The notes under the pieces are model-generated. The model was not told where the DNA came from and made no database searches. It saw only the letters and a program-made list of their open reading frames with translations. 64,000 nt of DNA from Dehalococcoidia bacterium (lineage in GTDB: Bacteria > Chloroflexota > Dehalococcoidia > Bin125), in contig OY820591.1 in the NCBI GenBank assembly GCA_963555985.3, positions 1,632,001 through 1,696,000 of the forward strand, in the 5' to 3' direction. The first letter of the stretch is position 1. Every line of letters begins with the position of its first letter. Of this stretch, positions 7,534 through 59,483 are shown one piece after another. A program made the translations under genes and the position numbers.

Positions 7534-8046
7534 ATGGCGAAGAAATCGAAGTCTCGCAAACAAGGCGCTCGGAACAACGGGGCGCAGCCGAACGATCGCG
7601 TCGTCGCGCGTAACCGCCGTGCCGGATTCCAATACGAGATCCTGCGGCGCTACGAAGCCGGCATTGAGCTGACCGGCAGCGAGATCAAATCGATCCGCGA
7701 AGGACGGGTCAGCATCGCCGAGGCCTATTGCCGCCCGCGCGAACGCGAGCTCTGGTTGGTCGGTGCGCACATCGCCCGCTACGAGCCGTCCGGACAGACC
7801 AACCACGAACCTACCCGCGACCGCCGCCTACTACTCCATCGCCGCGAGCTCGCCCAACTCGAAGAAGCCTTCGCCCAACGCGGACTCACCCTCGTTCCGA
7901 TCCGCCTCTATCTGACTCGCGGCCTAGCCAAGCTCGAGATTGGTGTCGGCCGCGGGCGCCGCGTCCACGAAAAGCGCCAACGCATGGCGGAACGCGACGC
8001 CCAGCGTCAGATCGCACGCGCAGTCGGCCGAACCAGCGGCCGCTAG
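7534..8046 (+). CDS. smpB: SsrA-binding protein
   Basis: ARNRRA...YEAGIELTGSEIKSIR, NHEPTRDRRLLLHRRE, LTLVP. Adjacent to tmRNA. Confidence 0.97.
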   Translation: MAKKSKSRKQGARNNGAQPNDRVVARNRRAGFQYEILRRYEAGIELTGSEIKSIREGRVSIAEAYCRPRERELWLVGAHIARYEPSGQTNHEPTRDRRLLLHRRELAQLEEAFAQRGLTLVPIRLYLTRGLAKLEIGVGRGRRVHEKRQRMAERDAQRQIARAVGRTSGR

Positions 8047-8181
8047 CAGACCGCCTCGATTCATCCGCCACCGAACCTGGACTGTACGGCGAGTATCAGA
8101 TCTCGTCGCTCGGCCGCGCCCCTTTTCTGTCGCGCCCGGCTACCATTGACCTCACGCCGAGACGGACTCGGTGCAACCGAT

Positions 8182-8539
8182 GGGGACGAAAGGGTTCGAC
8201 AGCGGCTGACTGATCGGAGCTGCGCGCCGAGGAGCCGCACCTCGTAAATCCGCGGCGACCTTCCTTTACCCGGCGAAACCAAGGAACTCGCCCTCGCCGC
8301 CTAACCGCGGCGACGCCGAACCCGAGCTGCCGCCGAGCCGGCTGGGTCCCGGCGCCGACTAGCACGGCTGCCTGCGATGGACGGTCAGGACCATTGCGGA
8401 AAGACCAACTGACTCACCTGAAGGTAACGGTAGGCCGACGCGCCGGCCTTCGGGGACAGACCAAGCGACGGCTACGCGCGTAGACGCGACGAGGAGCGGT
8501 CGTCTGGACGGGGAGTTCGATTCTCCCCCGTCTCCACCA
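8182..8539 (+). ncRNA. ssrA: tmRNA; tag peptide (A)GETKELALAA* at 8272-8304
   Basis: 5' GGGGACGAAAGGGTTCGAC and 3' GTTCGATT...CGTCTCCACCA with G3-U acceptor pair. Tag frame ends ALAA-TAA and has UA five nt before the resume codon. Follows smpB. Confidence 0.96.
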
Positions 8540-29874: not shown

Positions 29875-30111
29875 ATGAAGAACCGTCTGGAGTGTTGGCG
29901 CTGCGCCCTCCGCAACCGGCGAATGCTCCGCCGCTCGATCCTGACCAGCGCAGTCGTCGGGACGATCCTCGTGGCGATCAATCAGGGAACCGTGATCGTC
30001 GCCGGCGATGGCACGTGGGAACTGGCCTGGAAGATCCCACTGACCTACTGCGTCCCGTTCCTGGTCGCCTCCTGGGGTGCGCTGGGCAACGCCTACGCGC
30101 GCAGCGATTAG
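29875..30111 (+). CDS. NrtS-family small membrane protein
   Basis: VVGTILVAINQG...KIPLTYCVPFLVAS signature. Confidence 0.7.
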   Translation: MKNRLECWRCALRNRRMLRRSILTSAVVGTILVAINQGTVIVAGDGTWELAWKIPLTYCVPFLVASWGALGNAYARSD

Positions 30112-31487
30112 GTGCGAATCCCCTGATCACGCAGCCGTGCGATCAGGTCCTCTTGCGTACCCGTGCCCTTCGTCGAATTGCACGCCCCGCAGAGCAGTTG
30201 CAGATTCTCAATGTGATCAGTGCCCCCGCGAGAACGCGCCACGACATGATCGATCGTCATGTTGCGGAACGGGAACCAGGTCAGACAACCGTTGCAGCGA
30301 CCCTCTTGCGCGCCGTAGAGCAACTGCCTGTTCGACGGCGAACTGTACGGCGGCAAATCGCCCAGGTCAGTCCGCTGGGGGACATCGGTGCGGTGCGCTC
30401 CGGTGTAGAACAGGCCCAGCTCGCGCTGCATACGAGTGCGGACGAGCTCGGCCGCCTTTGGTGAAATGTCGATCCCGACCCACTGACGCTCCAACTTCTC
30501 CGCCGCCACGCACGCAGTCGCGCAACCGCAGAACGGATCGAAGACGAGATCGCCTGGGTGGGACGAGAGCGAGACGATCCGCTCCAGCAAGGCAAGAGGC
30601 TTCTGCGTCGGATAGCCAGTGCGCTCTCTGGCCCGTCCCTGGATCGGGCCAATGTCATCCCAGACTGAATCAACTGCGCGTCCGGGCTGTTCGTCCAGGT
30701 AGCGCTTGTAGCGAGGGACGCGCCCAGGTGCTGTCTGAACGACGCGACCTTGGGCGAGCGCCTGCTCCATCCGCTCGCGCGTCCAGCGCCAGACTCGATG
30801 AACGCCCAAAAACTCGTAGGTCAGATTCGGGCGGTTCCGATTGGGGTTCGTGAGATCCGTAAGCTGATAGCGCCGCCCCGTTTCTGGCTCGATGTGTCGA
30901 TAGGCTCGCTCCGCGTATTCGGCGTCGTGCGGCTGGTACTGAGCGTGGTACGTCGCGGCGTCGGAGAGCGCATAGCGCAGGAGCAAATCGTGGTTGTTGG
31001 CCATGTTCCGCGTGGCCAGGCCTTTCGCTCGTTGCCGACGCCAGATGATGTCGTTGCGGAACTGCGCCTGGCCGAAAATCGAGTCCATCACCGTCTTCAG
31101 GTAGTGACCGGCGGTCAAGTCGCAATGCAGATAGATGGTGCCGTCCGGCTTCAGGATGCGCTTCAGCTCCAACAGCCGCACCGACATCATGATCAGGTAG
31201 GCCTTCATCGGCCTCCCGTGCGAGAGCCCCGCCGACTCAATCACCGCCGCCAGCGCCGGCTCGCGCTCCGCCACTTCGCCGTGCCAGGCGACATCGAAAT
31301 CGTTCAGCGTCCAGGTGTCCTTGAAGGCAGCGGGCGCGGCCTCCGAGCCGATCGGCGCAGCGTAGTCGCGGTTGGAGTTGAACGGCGGATCGAGGTAGAT
31401 CAGGTCGACAGAAGCGGAGTTCATGCCCCGCATGATGTCGATGTTGTCACCCGTCCAGAGCGTCTGATTGGCCCAGTTCGGCGGCAT
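30108..31487 (-). CDS. Beta-class N6/N4 DNA methyltransferase fused to C-terminal HNH endonuclease (copy A)
   Basis: DLIYLDPPF, YPTQKP, DPFCGCAT, then CNGC...IDHVVARSRGGTDHIENLQLLCGACNSTKG. Confidence 0.9.
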   Translation of the reverse strand: MPPNWANQTLWTGDNIDIMRGMNSASVDLIYLDPPFNSNRDYAAPIGSEAAPAAFKDTWTLNDFDVAWHGEVAEREPALAAVIESAGLSHGRPMKAYLIMMSVRLLELKRILKPDGTIYLHCDLTAGHYLKTVMDSIFGQAQFRNDIIWRRQRAKGLATRNMANNHDLLLRYALSDAATYHAQYQPHDAEYAERAYRHIEPETGRRYQLTDLTNPNRNRPNLTYEFLGVHRVWRWTRERMEQALAQGRVVQTAPGRVPRYKRYLDEQPGRAVDSVWDDIGPIQGRARERTGYPTQKPLALLERIVSLSSHPGDLVFDPFCGCATACVAAEKLERQWVGIDISPKAAELVRTRMQRELGLFYTGAHRTDVPQRTDLGDLPPYSSPSNRQLLYGAQEGRCNGCLTWFPFRNMTIDHVVARSRGGTDHIENLQLLCGACNSTKGTGTQEDLIARLRDQGIRT

Positions 31488-48451: not shown

Positions 48452-48528
48452 GGTGCGGCGACAGGCCTTCTCTACGATGTGATCTGCGCGTACTGCACTG
48501 AGCCTAGTCAGCGCTTGGAGTGGCGACA

Positions 48529-49920
48529 ATGTCGGATTTGTCAGCCGCGTTGCGGCAGTTGCCCAGCGTCGATCGGCTGCTCTCCGATCCCGCACTCTCG
48601 GAGCTCCGCGCCCGGCTCCCCCACGACCTCTGCGTAGCGGCCGTGCGTGACGCACTCGCGCAGGCCCGCGCCGAAATTCAGGCAGGACGGAATCCCGTCC
48701 CGACCGCCGAGACCCTTGCGAGACAAACGGCCGCAACCCTGGAGCGCCGCTACGGCCGCTCGCTCCGCTCAGTCGTGAATGCGACCGGCGTCGTCATCCA
48801 CACCAATCTCGGGCGCGCTCCGCTCTCGCAAGCCGCGACCCAAGCGATGACCCAGGCCGCGGCCGCTTACTCCAATCTCGAATTCGAACTCTCCACAGGC
48901 ACGCGCGGCTCGCGTGCGACTCATCTCGATTCACTGCTCACGGCCGCGACCGGCGCAGAAGCCGGCATCGCCGTCAACAACAACGCCGCCGCCCTCTACT
49001 TCGTGATGTCGGTGTTCGCGGCCGGCCGCGATCTGATCGTGAGCCGCGGTCAGGCGGTCGAGATCGGCGGCGGCTTCCGCATCCCCGACGTCATCCGTCA
49101 GAGCGGGGCGCGCCTGGTCGAAGTCGGCACGACCAACCGCACTCGAGCCCAGGACTACCGCGACGCCCTGAGCGACGAGACCGCTGCCCTCCTCCGCGTC
49201 CACTCCTCCAACTTCCGCATCATCGGCTTTGTCGAAGAGACCACCGTCGCCGAACTGCGCGCCGTAGCAGACGATCACGAGACCCAAACCGCATCGCCCC
49301 CGCTGCTCATCGACGACGTAGGCAGCGGCTGCCTGCTCGACACCCGAAACTACGGACTCGCCTACGAACCGCGCCCCCAAGACTCCGTCGCGGCCGGCGC
49401 GGACCTGGTGCTGTTCTCGGGCGACAAGCTGCTCGGCGGCCCCCAGGCAGGAATCATCGTCGGCCGCGAATCGGCAATCGCCCCGCTCCGCCGGCATCCC
49501 CTCATGCGAGCCTTGAGACCGGACAAGACCACGATCGCCGGACTCGCCGCAACCCTGGAACACTACTTGGCCGGCGAAGCCGAAACCCAAATCCCGATCT
49601 GGCAAATGATCGCCGCCGAGCCGGCAACTCTCCGCAAACGCGCGGAATCATGGCAGGCAACCCTCGGTGCGGGCCAAGTCTCCCAATCGGAATCCGCCAT
49701 CGGCGGCGGCTCACTCCCCGGCGAAACCAGGCCAACCTGGGTCTGGAGCATTCGCCGCGAACACCCCTCCAAATTCGCCGAAGCCCTGCGCCGCTCGAAT
49801 CCCCCCGTAATCGCCCGCGTAACCGACGACCAAATCCTCCTCGATCCCAGAACCGTCCTCCCCGGCCAAGACCAACTCGTAATCGCCGCCCTCCGAGCAG
49901 CGCTCGGAGAGGTCGCATGA
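48529..49920 (+). CDS. selA: L-seryl-tRNA(Sec) selenium transferase
   Basis: VNATGVVIHTNLGRAPL, EIGGGFRIPDV, EVGTTNRT, FSGDKLLGGPQAG, GGGSLP. Confidence 0.96.
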   Translation: MSDLSAALRQLPSVDRLLSDPALSELRARLPHDLCVAAVRDALAQARAEIQAGRNPVPTAETLARQTAATLERRYGRSLRSVVNATGVVIHTNLGRAPLSQAATQAMTQAAAAYSNLEFELSTGTRGSRATHLDSLLTAATGAEAGIAVNNNAAALYFVMSVFAAGRDLIVSRGQAVEIGGGFRIPDVIRQSGARLVEVGTTNRTRAQDYRDALSDETAALLRVHSSNFRIIGFVEETTVAELRAVADDHETQTASPPLLIDDVGSGCLLDTRNYGLAYEPRPQDSVAAGADLVLFSGDKLLGGPQAGIIVGRESAIAPLRRHPLMRALRPDKTTIAGLAATLEHYLAGEAETQIPIWQMIAAEPATLRKRAESWQATLGAGQVSQSESAIGGGSLPGETRPTWVWSIRREHPSKFAEALRRSNPPVIARVTDDQILLDPRTVLPGQDQLVIAALRAALGEVA

Positions 49921-55153: not shown

Positions 55154-55500
55154 CGCAGCAGACCCGATTCAGCGGCGTCACCCTGGAGAGCGTCAGCGCC
55201 GTCGCCGAACTCTTCGGCGTCCCCGCCGAGCGCCAGGCCTACGCCCCGCCGGACGACACCGAGGGCGTCTGGGCGGTGCATCATCGCGGCGAATCGGGCA
55301 ATCTGCGCGTGCTGCTCTGGCCGTCGCTGGATCGAATCGACGTGAGCTGCGGCCCGCACATGTGGATCGTGCGCGGCGTGGACGAACTCGAGATCCTCGA
55401 AGACATCGAATTCATCGCGCGCTTCGGCGAGGGCGGCCTGCTCAGCGCAGCCGTGAGCGGCCAGGTGATGATGGTCGCGCCCCGCTCCGACTCGGACTAA
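55150..55500 (+). CDS. Hypothetical protein coupled to rarA
   Basis: ATGA overlap with the rarA stop; host-like codon use. Confidence 0.65.
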   Translation: MTQQTRFSGVTLESVSAVAELFGVPAERQAYAPPDDTEGVWAVHHRGESGNLRVLLWPSLDRIDVSCGPHMWIVRGVDELEILEDIEFIARFGEGGLLSAAVSGQVMMVAPRSDSD

Positions 55501-55512
55501 CCCAAGCAGCCC

Positions 55513-56145
55513 TCAGCCCGGAAGCGGCAGCCCCCGCACCCGCGCAAGGTCGTCCAGCAAGCGCCCCAGCATCGTCGCGGTCGCCCCGAAGATGCGGTGC
55601 CCCTCGTACCAGTACTCGCGCATCTGGAACACCTGCCCCTCGCGTTCCCGCGTCTCGAACGTCAGATTGGCCGGATCGAGCAGGTGCGAGAGCGAGGGCG
55701 TGATCACCTCCCCCACCTCGATTTCGAGCGGCCGGAACGGATAGGGCGCGCGGTCGAGCAGCCCCACGAAGGGCGTGACATGAAAGTCGGTCATGGTGCG
55801 GTAGTGCGACTGCTCGCCCAGGATTTCGACATGCTCGGCGCGAATGCCGACCTCTTCGTCCGCCTCGCGCAAGGCCGCCGCCAGCGGCGTCTCATCGACT
55901 GAATCGAGCGCTCCGCCCGGAAACGAGATTTCGCCCTTGTGATGCTCGACCTGATGCGAGCGCACGGTCAGCACAATCTGCGGATCGTTGTAGGGCAGCA
56001 CCGGAATCAACACCGCCGCCCGCCAGCGGCCAAGCTCAGGAGGCAGCGTCTGGAGGTCATGCAAGACCGCCGCCCGCCGCACTTCGCTCAGCGCAGGCAC
56101 TTCCTCCACCGACTCCGCTACACGGTCAGCGTGAGTACTGGACAT
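55513..56145 (-). CDS. CoA pyrophosphatase (Nudix, NudL-like)
   Basis: AAVLIP, LTVRS...HKGEISFPGG, AALREADEEVG, IFGATA. Confidence 0.9.
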   Translation of the reverse strand: MSSTHADRVAESVEEVPALSEVRRAAVLHDLQTLPPELGRWRAAVLIPVLPYNDPQIVLTVRSHQVEHHKGEISFPGGALDSVDETPLAAALREADEEVGIRAEHVEILGEQSHYRTMTDFHVTPFVGLLDRAPYPFRPLEIEVGEVITPSLSHLLDPANLTFETREREGQVFQMREYWYEGHRIFGATATMLGRLLDDLARVRGLPLPG

Positions 56146-56207
56146 GAGCTCCCATTTCAGCAATGCAGGCCAAACTGTCACTACTGTACTGCGCGCTTTG
56201 CCCTCCT

Positions 56208-56592
56208 TGTCCCCTCTCCCTTGAGGGGAGTTGCGCGTACATCACATTCCCGTTGCTCTCGTCATTCCAGCGAACGCTGGAATCTCGCTCCGACCAGATA
56301 ACCTGCAATTCCGGACGAGATTCCAGGTCAAGCCTGGAATGACGGAATTTGGGATTACGCGCAGGTCTCCTTGGGGGGTTGCTTGGGGCTTGGATGCTGG
56401 GGGTGGGTACCCCCTCTGTCCCCCGCCTGCGCGGCATCTCCCTCCCCGCGTGCGCGGGGGCAGGCTCCGCAGAGGGGGGGGAGAGGGGAGGTTGGTTGGG
56501 GGCGTTTGTGCTGGGGGTGGCGTTTCACCCCCTCTGCCCCGTTGGGGCATCTCCCCCTTGAGGGGGAGATTCTTGGGGGCGGGGATGACGGC
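56208..56592. repeat. Cluster of REP-like palindromic repeats (two families)
   Basis: GTCATTCCAGCgaacGCTGGAATCTCG...CGAGATTCCAGGtcaagCCTGGAATGAC at 56261-56343; several CCCCTCT...TCTCCCCC...GGGGGAGA hairpins. Confidence 0.75.
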
Positions 56593-56610
56593 ATTGTGGG
56601 TGGGCATGGG

Positions 56611-58032
56611 TTAGAGCTGATTTCTCATGCTGGCGATGCGGCCGCGGTCGACGGGCGGGAGGTGGAAGAACTCGATCCGGGTGGTTGGCGGTTCGAGTTG
56701 GGGTTGGGCCAGCTCGTGGCAGTAGCGGTCGGCGTCCAGGAGGTCGTCGTCGCGGTCCCGGGGTTGGGGGTTGGCGGCGCGGGGGTCTCGCCACTGGTAC
56801 TCCCTCATGCGGCGCGGGAACTGGACGAGCTCGGGGGTGTAAAAGGACGTCGGCGGGTCGGCGGCGAGCCGCTCTTGCACCAGGCCGATGCCCTGGTGGA
56901 CGGAGCCGGGGCCGCCCCGGCTGGGGCGGATGTCGCGCCCGCGGCGGTGAAGGTGGTCGATCCAGGCGGACTGCGTGCGGTCGGCGTTCCAACTGATTGA
57001 GCCGAAGCGCCGGCGGCACTGGAGCATCCACTGTTCGAGCCGCTGGGTGACGCCCGGGCCTCTGTCCTCGAACTCGGCCAGGCGGATCAAGACGCCCGGT
57101 CCGCAGACGGCATGGCGGGTGGTGAGGCCGGCGACGATGCCGGCGGTGTAGTGGGCCTGTTCGGTCTGGGCGCCGAAGTCGAGGCCGCCGAGGTAGCGCT
57201 CGAAGCTGGGCAGGCGCTTGTCCCAGAGATGCAGTTTGGGGTCGAACTTGGGGTAGACGAGGCCCTCGAAGGCGTCGAAGCGTCCTTCGATGAAGCGTTC
57301 GACCCAGTCGGGCGGGAGCAGGGCGCGTTGCTGCTCGGCGTAGTTCTCGGGTAGGTGGGGGTTGTCTTCGATCTTGGCGGGGATGAAGCGGGCTTGTCCG
57401 CCGGCGTGCTCGAGTTCAGCTTTGTTCAGTTCGCGTTGGACGAACCAGCGCTCGAACCAGCCCGGGTGCGGATTGGAGGCGGCCACGAACCAGCGTTGGG
57501 GCTGGGCCGGGTGACGCAGGCGAGTGAGCAGCATCTGGGCGGCTTCTTCGGCCACTTCGCCGGCTTCGTCTATGAGCACGGTTCCGTACTGCTGGGAGCC
57601 GAGGCCGGTCCAGTCGGAGAGATGGCGAAAGTGGATCGTGGAGGGTTCGCTCGAGTACTGGAGGCTGCTGACCGTGAGGGAATGGGTGGGTGAACTGCGG
57701 CGTTGGATGGTGAGGTCGGGGTCTGCGGTGCAGATGCGCAGGAACTCGCCCATGGTCGTGGTGTAGAGGTCTGTGAACGTGTCGCGTGCGAGCAGGATGT
57801 TGTTGCCCGGGAAGATCAAGGCCGCGTCCAGGGCGAGCTCGGCCAGGGCGCGGGTCTTGCCGCCGCCCATGGCGCCGCCGTAGCCGACCAGGGCGAGGCC
57901 GGGATTGGGCACGGTAGCGACTGCGCAACAGAGCTCGCGCTGTCTGTCCGTCGGAAAAAAACCGCGAGACTTGTGCAAGCGGTCGAACGCAACGACCGCC
58001 CGCTTTGAGCTGGGGGTATTACTGTGGCTCAT
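56611..58032 (-). CDS. Phage terminase large subunit
   Basis: YGGAMGGGKT Walker A, VLIDEA Walker B, ASNP coupling motif, DNPHL, GLDFG RNase H Asp, DDDLLDADRY. Confidence 0.88.
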   Translation of the reverse strand: MSHSNTPSSKRAVVAFDRLHKSRGFFPTDRQRELCCAVATVPNPGLALVGYGGAMGGGKTRALAELALDAALIFPGNNILLARDTFTDLYTTTMGEFLRICTADPDLTIQRRSSPTHSLTVSSLQYSSEPSTIHFRHLSDWTGLGSQQYGTVLIDEAGEVAEEAAQMLLTRLRHPAQPQRWFVAASNPHPGWFERWFVQRELNKAELEHAGGQARFIPAKIEDNPHLPENYAEQQRALLPPDWVERFIEGRFDAFEGLVYPKFDPKLHLWDKRLPSFERYLGGLDFGAQTEQAHYTAGIVAGLTTRHAVCGPGVLIRLAEFEDRGPGVTQRLEQWMLQCRRRFGSISWNADRTQSAWIDHLHRRGRDIRPSRGGPGSVHQGIGLVQERLAADPPTSFYTPELVQFPRRMREYQWRDPRAANPQPRDRDDDLLDADRYCHELAQPQLEPPTTRIEFFHLPPVDRGRIASMRNQL

Positions 58033-58375
58033 CCTCTTCCTCTTCGCTTTCCTCGTCCTCCGTCAGGGGGACGTCTTCGCCGCGCATGAGGGCGGCTGCT
58101 TGGGCGTGGACCGAGTGGAGGTGGAACTCCTTCTGCTGCTCAGCGGTGAGCGGGGCTTCGGGCAGGTGGGGGGAATGGTTGGGCCGGGGCGGGGGCTCGG
58201 GGTGGGGTTCGATGCCGAGCGCGTAGTGGATCTCGCGGCTCTTGGGGTTGGCGGGGGAGAGTTCGCGGCGCAGGATGGCGAAGGCTTGGGCGCGGACGTA
58301 GCCGGGTTCGCGCTTGGAGAAGGCGAGCTCGCCGACGCCGGCCATGGCGGACTGGTAGCTGTAGTTGAAGGGCAT
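58019..58375 (-). CDS. Hypothetical protein overlapping the terminase start (small-subunit position)
   Basis: AGAGGA RBS, TATAAG-like -10 upstream, 14-nt overlap with TerL, acidic tail. Confidence 0.6.
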   Translation of the reverse strand: MPFNYSYQSAMAGVGELAFSKREPGYVRAQAFAILRRELSPANPKSREIHYALGIEPHPEPPPRPNHSPHLPEAPLTAEQQKEFHLHSVHAQAAALMRGEDVPLTEDEESEEEEDEPQ

Positions 58376-58488
58376 GGGTCGGGGTTCCTCTCTTGCTGAA
58401 TGAAGGACACTTGATCTTATATGGATGGGTGTTCGGGTGGGTAATTTGGGGTGTGTCGTGGTTGACTGAGGGTTGGGTGCTGGTCACG

Positions 58489-58572
58489 GCGAGATACCCG
58501 CGACGGGGCGCGGGTATGACGGAGCTTGTTTGGGGCGGGTATGGCGGAGCTCTGGGCGCGGGTATGACGGAA
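58489..58572. repeat. Tandem truncated REP-like units GCGGGTATG(A/G)CGGA x3
   Basis: GAGATACCCGCG-acgggg-CGCGGGTATGACGGA followed by two partial copies. Confidence 0.7.
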
Positions 58573-58626
58573 ATGGGGATTTAGGCGCAGGTCTCCAAAC
58601 GACAGAGCGACAACTTGACCAACTAT

Positions 58627-58702
58627 TGGTGGGCCGGGCTGGATTCGAACCAGCGACCGAGCGGTTATGAGCCGCCTGCTCTGACCCCTGAGCTACCGGC
58701 CC
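58627..58702 (-). tRNA. tRNA with CAT anticodon, probably tRNA-Ile2 (lysidine-modified); elongator Met not excluded
   Basis: GGGCCGG/CCGGCCC acceptor stem, TAGCTCAG D-arm, CTCATAA anticodon loop, GGTTCGAATCC T-arm, encoded CCA. Paired 1:72 excludes the initiator. Confidence 0.93.
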
Positions 58703-58767
58703 CGTGTTCGTGGCAATCTGGAGCGAGTCTACAGGGGAGTTGCGGGGGCTGTCTTAGGCTGCGGCGT

Positions 58768-59346
58768 ATGTGGCGTTGCCGGCCGGTCTCTGTGCTCTCG
58801 CTTGTGGCGGTTGCGTTTGCGGTGTTGGCCTGTGGGCCGGTGCCGGGCATTTCGGGGGAGTCGGCCAATCTGGGCGGGGTGCTGCCGCCCGCGACCGCGC
58901 GACCGAGCGGTCTAGACGCCTATCTCGAACTCCCCGACGACGTCGAACAGGTCGTCTTCCCCTACTCGGAGGTGACGATTGAACGGGAGGCCGGCGTTCT
59001 CACCCTGGGCGTACTCGTGGCGAACACGGGCGAGCGGCGTCAGCGCGGGCTGATGTACTGGACCGGTTTGCCCGCGCAGATGGGCATGATCTTCATTTGG
59101 GAAGGCGGCGGCGAGCGTTACGGCGGGTTCTGGAACCAGAACGTGCCGATGGACTTGAGCGTCGCGTTCCTGGATCGGGACGGCGTCGTGATGGAGTTCG
59201 TCACCCTGTACGCGCAGGACGACGAGGTGAAAGCGCCCGCTCAAGCCTACGCCTACGCGCTCGAGGTTCCGCGCGGCCGCTTCGAGCAACTGGGCATTCG
59301 CGTTGGCGATCGGGTGCGGATTCCGCAGTCGCTCTGGGCGGAGTGA
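58768..59346 (+). CDS. DUF192-domain lipoprotein
   Basis: Lipobox VLAC, VANT.ERRQRGLM, GMIF, FWNQNV.MDLSVAFLD, YALEVP.G, IRVGDRV. Confidence 0.85.
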   Translation: MWRCRPVSVLSLVAVAFAVLACGPVPGISGESANLGGVLPPATARPSGLDAYLELPDDVEQVVFPYSEVTIEREAGVLTLGVLVANTGERRQRGLMYWTGLPAQMGMIFIWEGGGERYGGFWNQNVPMDLSVAFLDRDGVVMEFVTLYAQDDEVKAPAQAYAYALEVPRGRFEQLGIRVGDRVRIPQSLWAE

Positions 59347-59483
59347 GAGTCGCGCTTGCCGGATTTGACGGCGCTCAACATCCGCCTACGTGGTAGACCA
59401 TCGCCGAGAGTGCTAGGATGATTTCGCAAAATAGGCGGTCGGGCACAGCTCGATCCCGACTGGACGCAGATACGGAGCGCAAG

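Follow-up and report, generated by a model that had tools for sequence, protein, structure and literature searches.

A solo pair of terminase genes in a Dehalococcoidia genome, possibly one of several packaging motors of a dispersed, gene transfer agent-like system

The 64-kb stretch of the Dehalococcoidia contig OY820591.1 analysed here (positions 1,632,001 to 1,696,000, referred to as the window) contains a cassette of two genes on its minus strand, which encode the small (TerS) and large (TerL) subunits of a terminase. Further copies are found in related genomes, and conserved, selected, multi-copy terminase cassettes that stand alone among housekeeping genes are not an ordinary finding. 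The cassette may encode one motor among several that serve DNA packaging in a dispersed, damage-inducible system resembling a gene transfer agent (GTA), a function to which we give about as much credence as doubt.

The larger protein is a large terminase with the two-domain terminase fold and all of the catalytic motifs, so that ATPase and nuclease activity are predicted. It matches the Pfam families Terminase_6N (7.6e-10) and Terminase_3 (3.4e-7) over residues 52-261 and the TerL family PHROG_2 (5.6e-26), while its sole NCBIfam match, TIGR01547 'PBSX family terminase large subunit', is weak (44.9 bits, with a cut-off of 105). The ATPase motifs, which comprise Walker A (G52-T60, GYGGAMGGGKT), Walker B (D155 E156, LIDEAG) and the coupling motif ASN (A185-N187), are invariant in an alignment of 29 sequences, as are the acidic nuclease residues D285, D351 and D433/D435. 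The acidic residues line up with the nuclease motifs of the D6E large terminase (E 3.5e-11). The AlphaFold2 (AF2) model of the protein is of modest quality (pLDDT 60.9), and its best Foldseek matches are the large terminases of D6E, Sf6, P74-26, HK97 and T4 (E 1.8e-15 over about 444 columns, TM-scores 0.35-0.40). A preliminary description of the window had reported an uninterrupted TerL with all ATPase and RNase H motifs, and the Pfam, PHROG, motif and D6E comparisons agree with it. The nearest phage TerLs in INPHARED share 24-28% identity over at most 56% of the protein.

The smaller protein is identified, by transitive homology, as the core of a TerS that lacks the N-terminal helix-turn-helix (HTH) DNA-binding domain. 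Its family is characterised by a common core, ..GPAYVRxxAxxxLxRxxGLF.., and an acidic tail with a DEDEPP end. When a profile hidden Markov model (HMM) built from 30 small proteins was compared with 1.84 billion representatives, 105 matches were obtained at E<=1e-3, and 37 of the 38 strong ones (E<=1e-10) were only 85-138 aa long. Twenty-five of the 105, mainly longer and weaker matches, were picked for annotation. Pfam Terminase_2 was present in 19 of these at E<=0.01 and the TerS family PHROG_51 in 20. The assignment as a headless core follows from the extent of the alignments, because the HTH part of the picked Terminase_2 proteins occupies residues 1-80 and the small-protein profile covers about 55-130. 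The window protein itself begins about six residues ahead of the first core helix. Direct searches gave little: the window protein itself had negative or weak results with Pfam and PHROG, Pfam matched 0 of the 30 small proteins, PHROG_51 was marginal in 4 of 30 (best E 0.053), the best PDB match of the family was the Pam5 TerS at E 0.46, and the Atlas returned only unnamed viral clusters, at 0.92. Similarly, none of 68 Foldseek matches of the AF2 model (pLDDT 69.3) reached E<=0.001, and the TerS of PaP3 was found at rank 9 (probability 0.69, 26 columns). In the available part of PMC6854486, the lack of a DNA-binding domain at the N-terminus is proposed as a hallmark of TerS proteins of the 'GTA-type'.

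The two genes are closely coupled, with the 118-aa open reading frame (ORF) and the start of TerL overlapping by 14 nt. A ribosome-binding site and a -10-like box had been attributed to the small gene; a GAGAGGAA stretch and ATATAAGAT are indeed seen upstream of its ATG, and the promoter found no support in a sigma-70 consensus scan of 55400-59400, an uninformative test in which no promoter-like site was called and terminator-like sites numbered 2, with 2.8 expected. The final TerS codons (GAGGAAGAGGATG) hold a GAGG run just 5' of the TerL ATG that could be the TerL ribosome-binding site. Across the family, the HMM places the small gene 5' of TerL in 61 of 68 loci, and four of the seven misses have no upstream DNA. 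The gene is co-directional in 51 of these loci, where it mostly overlaps TerL by 14-23 nt, and divergent in ten (L006 vs L067; L016 vs L005; L043, L051, L056, L057, L045, L049, L052 and L030). The inversion must have arisen more than once, since inverted loci share their syntenic context with co-directional relatives. Co-divergence of the small protein and TerL was considered as evidence and dropped, since their pairwise identities show a weak correlation (Spearman 0.30, from pairs that are not independent), with means of 27% vs 64%.

A protein search with the window TerL gave 193 matches. For the best 120 of the 193, E is <=4e-148 throughout and identity ranges over 54-97%; wherever an organism is named, it belongs to the Chloroflexota. 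In the genome scan 111 matches were confirmed, and the 80 that were retained represent 67 loci in 40 assemblies (metagenome-assembled genomes of Dehalococcoidia/Chloroflexota). Because only 80 of the 111 were kept, the copy numbers are lower bounds: one locus in 23 assemblies, two in 8, three in 8 and four in one, the last on OZ241962.1 (L036, L044, L051 and L056). Cassettes are also present on the complete chromosomes OZ247431.1 and OZ241982.1. Several TerL paralogues of 55-65% identity occur per genome. A 3,145,412-nt contig of a close relative encodes TerLs 97% and 88% identical to that of the window, together with six small-protein paralogues that share 67-97% identity and have a best match of 54% from elsewhere. 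One cassette, L003, lies on a 2,544-nt contig (VXNE01000402.1) binned as Gammaproteobacteria, yet it is nearly identical to L002 from a Chloroflexi bin, and the assignment is probably a binning error rather than transfer.

Neighbouring ORFs were called with a home-made filter on GC content at third codon positions (GC3) and clustered by BLASTP. Among them are CoA-transferases, DUF885, ClpB/DnaJ, purine and histidine biosynthesis, PriA, PstB/PhoU and P450s, and in one context genes of the restriction-modification or toxin-antitoxin-like type are frequent (N6_N4 methylase, PaREP1, Uma2, Mrr_cat and PIN). Sorted by eye, the sites fall into at least nine recurrent syntenic contexts that are common to different species. 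The sole transposase seen adjoining any of the 67 cassettes is of the IS1595 family, 600 nt downstream of TerL (L012:11984-12943). Within about 6 kb of the cassettes, in 67 of 67 loci, Pfam families of portals, capsids, tails and integrases were absent from the representatives of 72 recurrent neighbour clusters and of 132 others; phage proteins of new families are possible among the neighbours, because many of these ORFs have no Pfam match at all. TerL is a single ORF with the Walker A and DADRY motifs in 64 of the 67 loci, L030 being split and L046 and L065 cut or truncated. Its dN/dS ratio was 0.074-0.331 in 24 of 24 pairs (Nei-Gojobori), with no relaxation of selection. Purifying selection maintains the family, at chromosomal sites that recur between genomes. 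The preliminary description took a decaying prophage remnant as its null hypothesis and proposed instead a retained, stand-alone packaging enzyme. Based on the intact ORFs and the dN/dS values, and with no phage structural genes adjoining, the remnant is rejected for this family, and the retained enzyme is borne out by solo paralogues in all 67 fetched loci. Searches of the literature on solo or orphan terminases, on terminases in Chloroflexi or SAR202 and on domesticated terminases found no description of this family.

The promoters of the cassettes point to a possible partner. In an alignment of 50 family promoters, the sequence cGAAC-N4-GTTC is followed directly by a -10-like CATACCAT/TATAAGAT and CGAYC. 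If one mismatch is allowed, this box is present in 52 of 61 cassette promoters (background 0.11 per 270-nt window) and perfectly in 17 of 61 (background 0.005 per 270-nt window), and in divergent cassettes each of the two genes has a separate box. The same box stands at 13 of 14 starts of a second operon, named after its gene c10 (9 perfect), and at 13 of 13 starts of a gene for a protein of about 700 aa, c13. GAAC-N4-GTTC is given in the accessible portion of PMC3323433 as the LexA motif of B. subtilis and other Gram-positives. From the motif, LexA is probably the repressor that acts at these boxes. The LexA of Dehalococcoides presumably uses the same motif.

The unknown gene c10 (145-166 aa) was reached via perfect boxes outside the cassettes. 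It belongs to an operon, c10-c11-c15-c16-c22-c27, which in 15 of 67 loci has the same strand as TerL and follows a cassette 3.5-9.8 kb downstream. Three of its products (c15, c16 and c22) are small proteins, and the last, c27, is an Amidase_2 protein. The c11 protein has 293 aa and is 86-97% identical across species, and precomputed Pfam annotation of 80 c11 homologues contained PF25209 in six and PF19821 in one. The first is the N4 gp56 major-capsid family (PMC13299392, as far as the source was available), and the second annotates a phage major capsid protein (PMC8515928, likewise in part). Through these homologues c11 is probably an N4-type major capsid protein, a call that is probable rather than proven because direct tests of c11 were all negative. 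A c11 homologue, P0267 (74% identity), is encoded on the 3,145,412-nt contig of the close relative. For c10 a PDB profile search gave nothing significant, and the Atlas placed scaffolding-protein clusters at only 0.84, which is a lead only. The c13 protein is a candidate portal or other particle part. The preliminary description had suggested a look for portal and capsid genes elsewhere; in related genomes this led to the probable capsid operon, and no portal was found.

Based on this evidence, the cassettes would supply the packaging motors for a particle system that derives from a phage, has been domesticated and dispersed, and is of the GTA or PBSX kind. DNA damage would cause the repressor, probably LexA, to leave the operator, and the capsid and terminase genes would be co-expressed. 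The headless TerS would bring TerL to DNA without sequence specificity, and TerL would cut host DNA and pump it into capsids encoded elsewhere. The window copy would be a paralogue sited away from the capsid operon. Among the options that the preliminary description had listed, a dispersed GTA gained most, through the headless TerS and the operator common with the probable capsid operon, while a repeat-mobilised cassette was not supported.

Several observations weigh against the GTA-like system. A GTA needs one terminase, and the presence of up to four (probably at least six) diverged paralogues per genome, far from the capsid operon, is unexplained. The capsid Pfam families were found on only 7 of the 80 c11 homologues. 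PDB profile searches and NCBIfam found nothing significant for c11, no match came from tblastn against 50,697 phage records, and the hhalign probability for N4 gp56 was 0.1-0.3%. The c13 protein has no match in Pfam (searched at E<=1e-6 only), NCBIfam, PDB profiles or the phage records by tblastn, and its hhalign comparison with N4 gp59 was not significant. No portal and no tail genes were identified in the related loci. In the window, tblastn found no homologue of a capsid, a portal, c10-c27 or c13, and the link to the capsid operon comes solely from related genomes and one protein on the contig of the close relative. In addition, the positional homologue of the family box in the window, GAACACCCATCC, has two mismatches in the right half-site. 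We infer that the operator of this copy decayed while its ORFs stayed intact.

Features of the cassette, its surroundings in the window and the box-preceded genes of related loci.
Feature	Position	Strand	Remarks
TerL, large terminase (ATPase and RNase H-like nuclease)	56611..58032	-	473 aa; uninterrupted ORF
Headless TerS	58019..58375	-	118 aa; core helices of a small terminase and acidic C-tail (EEEDEPQ); no N-terminal HTH; homology transitive
Promoter-operator remnant (inferred)	58415..58435	-	GAACACCCATCC at 58424-58435 and -10-like ATATAAGAT at 58415-58423
Array of hairpins like repetitive extragenic palindromes (REP)	58484..58600	+	between cassette and tRNA; GAGAT-ACCCGCG-loop-CGCGGGT-ATGACGGA, two half units and linker GGGGATTTAGGCGCAGGTCTCC
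REP-like palindrome cluster	56200..56606	+	between NUDIX gene and TerL stop; unit at 56579-56591; composite hairpin and linker at 56300-56370
tRNA-Met(CAT)	58627..58702	-	cassette lies 3' of the tRNA; neighbour only, not family anatomy
Probable capsid operon in related loci (examples)	L041:11280-14697, L020:14394-18029, L044:17569-21041 (and 12 other loci)		box-preceded
c13, protein of about 700 aa	L011:2390-4480, L061:1215-3338 (and 12 other loci)	- (both listed loci)	5-8 kb upstream of cassette, on the other strand

The alternative that survives best is capsid piracy or phage interference, although its probability is low. The cassettes would then be decoy terminases encoded by the host or by an element, either co-induced with a prophage or meeting infecting phages, that compete for procapsids and fill them with host DNA, which would lower the phage yield and give rise to transducing particles. 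The diverged paralogues would match the portals of different phages, and their number and low identity within a genome fit this idea. Both the window cassette and those of contexts B, C, F, G, H, I and K also stand alone, distant from capsid genes. Moreover, a damage-type operator would time the cassettes with prophage induction, the headless TerS argues for non-specific packaging, and restriction-modification and toxin-antitoxin-like genes are frequent neighbours in one context. However, neither protein had any match to 5,027 PADLOC defence models (PADLOC-DB 2.0, E<=0.1), and the sites keep their synteny between species, unlike variable islands. An in-house partner is indicated by the capsid-like operon, which is conserved and has the same operator, and no phage in INPHARED has a related TerL.

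The history of the cassettes bears on a second alternative, which is less probable again. In a midpoint-rooted TerL tree (FastTree LG+gamma, 67 sequences; L030, L046 and L065 left out), most clades track the syntenic context, and most cassettes therefore appear to have descended vertically. Some copies depart from this pattern. The loci L049 and L052, which lie in different contexts of the same genome, are 96% identical over 2,425 nt; L051 and L056, also from one genome and different contexts, are 83% identical over 2,235 nt; and L038 and L018, from different genomes and contexts, are 89% identical over 2,129 nt. The homology ends at the TerL stop codon and 90-250 nt past the small gene, and the two genes that flank a co-directional cassette in four other genomes flank an inverted one in L038. 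The cassette is thus a discrete unit of 2.1-2.4 kb that is occasionally copied or overwritten between sites, and either ectopic conversion or cassette-level mobility fits the copied units. If the unit is a selfish element, breaks made by the SOS-induced TerL nuclease would be repaired from another copy, resulting in copy-and-paste spread or overwriting between sites, either as a homing-like drive or as a new form of transposition. The near-identical units in different contexts, the sharp ends of their homology and the lineage-specific expansion of the small protein on the contig of the close relative are in line with this. Against it, terminal inverted repeats and target-site duplications were absent from the boundaries of the three copy pairs examined, the unit has no integrase or transposase, and vertical descent prevails. 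In addition, ordinary ectopic gene conversion between paralogues gives the same boundaries, and such a lifestyle requires neither an ATP-driven translocase nor a TerS, yet both are under purifying selection.

A purely cellular role appears very unlikely. Here the cassette would encode a domesticated, SOS-induced, ATP-dependent nuclease or translocase with a small regulator, which takes part in the repair or processing of damaged chromosomal DNA. The damage-type operator, the housekeeping surroundings and the purifying selection are compatible with such a role, whereas the retention of the TerS partner in 61 of 68 loci, the co-regulation with a capsid-like operon and an amidase, and the many paralogues per genome speak against it.

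The last alternative arose from the setting of the cassette in the window, where housekeeping genes are found on both sides (SelA, LigB, MutS2, RarA and NUDIX on one, DUF192, GlpK, GlpD and a P-type ATPase on the other). As had been described earlier, the composition is host-like and phage partners are missing: GC is 0.65-0.71 over the cassette genes and 0.63-0.74 in the flanks, the GC3 values of the two genes (0.86 and 0.87) are within the range of host ORFs, and a Pfam scan of 48 other window ORFs (19 + 29) gave no family of portals, capsids, tails or integrases. The repeat unit GCGGGKATGACGG, searched with at most one mismatch, does occur in the same orientation on both sides of the cassette, with four matches, all on the plus strand (56579, 58510, 58535 and 58558), against 0.50 expected, a number reached in 0 of 100 shuffles. 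On the right, the three units are arranged as a 25-nt tandem array (58506-58571), and the stretch 56240-56375 of the left-hand cluster has z = -3.95. The flanking units have the form GAGAT-stem-loop-stem-ATGACGGA with the linker GGGATTnnGCGCAGGTCTCC, and within the window these repeat families are confined to the two flanks of the cassette.

When related genomes are considered, the picture of a cassette beside a tRNA and bracketed by repeats, which gave the preliminary description its title, applies to the window and not to the family. Many related genomes carry hairpins and linkers at sites that are kilobases from any terminase, with dozens in L032 and L034. At 29 of 61 loci, k-mers of dispersed repeats were found no more than 300 nt from a cassette edge, compared with 43% of control positions, so that repeats show no excess there. 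Near cassettes there is some enrichment of CCGTCAT in the sense orientation, which was seen upstream in 12 of 60 loci, downstream in 7 and on both sides in only 2, and only 3 of 60 loci have a tRNA within 1.5 kb. The repeats on the flanks are generic dispersed REP-like elements, not cassette ends, and both they and the tRNA are incidental. Two related candidates were rejected. A 35-nt direct repeat (56336-56370 and 58561-58596), considered as an att duplication from tRNA integration, is the generic hairpin plus linker, which also occurs 2.9 kb from TerL in L048 and elsewhere. As cassette ends, the repeats have no general association; in two recent copy pairs a TCCGTCAT hairpin marks the exact start of the homology, and this REP hairpin at their left edge stays unexplained. 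A prophage remnant at a tRNA integration site, or a cassette moved by flanking GCGGGKATGACGG repeats, is thus the weakest of the explanations and largely refuted: the position 3' of tRNA-Met, the repeats on both sides, the hairpin at the two copy edges and the modest CCGTCAT enrichment are outweighed by intact, selected ORFs, by the lack of an integrase or of any overlap between repeats and tRNA, and by the occurrence of hairpin and linker many kilobases from cassettes in other genomes.

Like the dispersed palindromes of the REP/BIME type and the Rickettsia-type palindromic elements found in genes, the flanking units are short, dispersed and palindromic, form arrays and also occur in frame inside the TerLs of relatives; here they are genome background and not parts of the cassette. 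Such in-frame palindromes sit in one TerL loop in L049 (10859-10953), L052, L045 and about 30 other loci, where they add 14-148 aa, and the peptide 'RHSCAGRNHEP' in these proteins is the translated hairpin CCGTCATTCCTGCGCAGGCAGGAATCACGAACCA. The loop corresponds to the region near residue 305 of the window TerL (about 57110-57125), which has no insert. Elsewhere in the window, the minus strand at 30108-31487 encodes a fusion of an N6_N4 DNA methylase with an HNH endonuclease domain, and the surrounding region of about 28-33.5 kb, with few genes called by our own ORF filter, may be a small restriction-modification island. Ordinary host housekeeping markers are present at 7534-8539 and 48520-49920, where SmpB adjoins the tmRNA (tag GETKELALAA) and the gene for the selenocysteine synthase SelA is found.

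Textbooks treat terminases as the hallmark of tailed-virus genomes, and prophages and viral contigs are called with their help; terminase-based virus calling will mis-score genomes with solo cassettes. The cassette also offers a compact, natural 'GTA-type' TerS/TerL pair for the study of sequence-independent packaging and a pointer to a possible gene transfer agent in Chloroflexota. No GTA was found described for this phylum, in a literature search that was uninformative on the question. The operator leads to a testable prediction, namely that the cassettes, the capsid-like operon and the gene for the protein of about 700 aa are co-induced by DNA damage. Going further, and with more reserve than for the role of the cassette itself, Dehalococcoidia might hold an undescribed damage-inducible GTA-like system whose scattered genes are tied only by a common operator and which, unlike known GTAs, has several diverged TerS-TerL motors per genome, each placed independently. 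The extra motors might serve as different packaging modes or entry points, or they might be semi-autonomous, capsid-hitching cassettes that spread via terminase-made breaks. If they are semi-autonomous, the cassettes would amount to a mobile element of a new kind, made out of a packaging enzyme. A multi-motor architecture, if real, would raise the new question of how one capsid system is shared by several terminases.

Compared with known systems, the cassette departs from the phage head-packaging module, in which TerL lies beside portal and head genes, an arrangement found neither in the window nor in the 67 loci (about 6 kb, 204 representatives). Insertion sequences and transposons are likewise multi-copy, and differ in having the terminal inverted repeats and target-site duplications that the three copy pairs lack. 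The pac-type terminases with a Terminase_2 TerS (SPP1/SF6) have a homologous TerS core, the same TerL fold and the same overlapping terS-terL order, whereas the cassette TerS has no HTH, portal and head genes do not follow downstream, and the pair is not in a virus genome. Defective prophages and phage-like bacteriocins of the PBSX type are damage-inducible, host-retained phage genes that package host DNA non-specifically and carry a Gram-positive-type LexA box. PBSX is one contiguous element of about 28 kb with tail genes. The damage-type box and the phage-derived genes are alike in the present family, in which the genes are dispersed and neither tail genes nor a portal have been identified.

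Phage satellites are also small, chromosomal and reliant on the capsids of others, and some encode TerS (PICI) or both TerS and TerL (cf-PICI) to redirect packaging (PMC10803314 and PMC10085698, in the portions available). The known satellites (P4-like, PICI, cf-PICI, PLE and PICMI) integrate site-specifically and encode an integrase as well as excision and replication functions, according to the same portion of PMC10803314. In contrast, the cassette has two genes only, no integrase Pfam and no att sites, and measures 2.1-2.4 kb as opposed to about 5.5-18 kb. Overall, the closest comparison is with the gp1/gp2 pair of the Rhodobacter capsulatus GTA (RcGTA). The RcGTA pair heads a head-tail cluster beside the portal, while the cassettes stand alone at least 3.5-9.8 kb from the probable capsid operon, with the window copy elsewhere. 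The present family, whose particles are predicted, belongs to a different phylum, has several diverged paralogues per genome and has a Terminase_3/6N-type TerL 24-28% identical to INPHARED TerLs. As far as the available text of PMC6854486 describes RcGTA, both TerS proteins start at the oligomerisation core without an N-terminal HTH, and both are encoded directly upstream of an intact TerL, in host-encoded and vertically inherited systems whose genes possibly lie in several loci.

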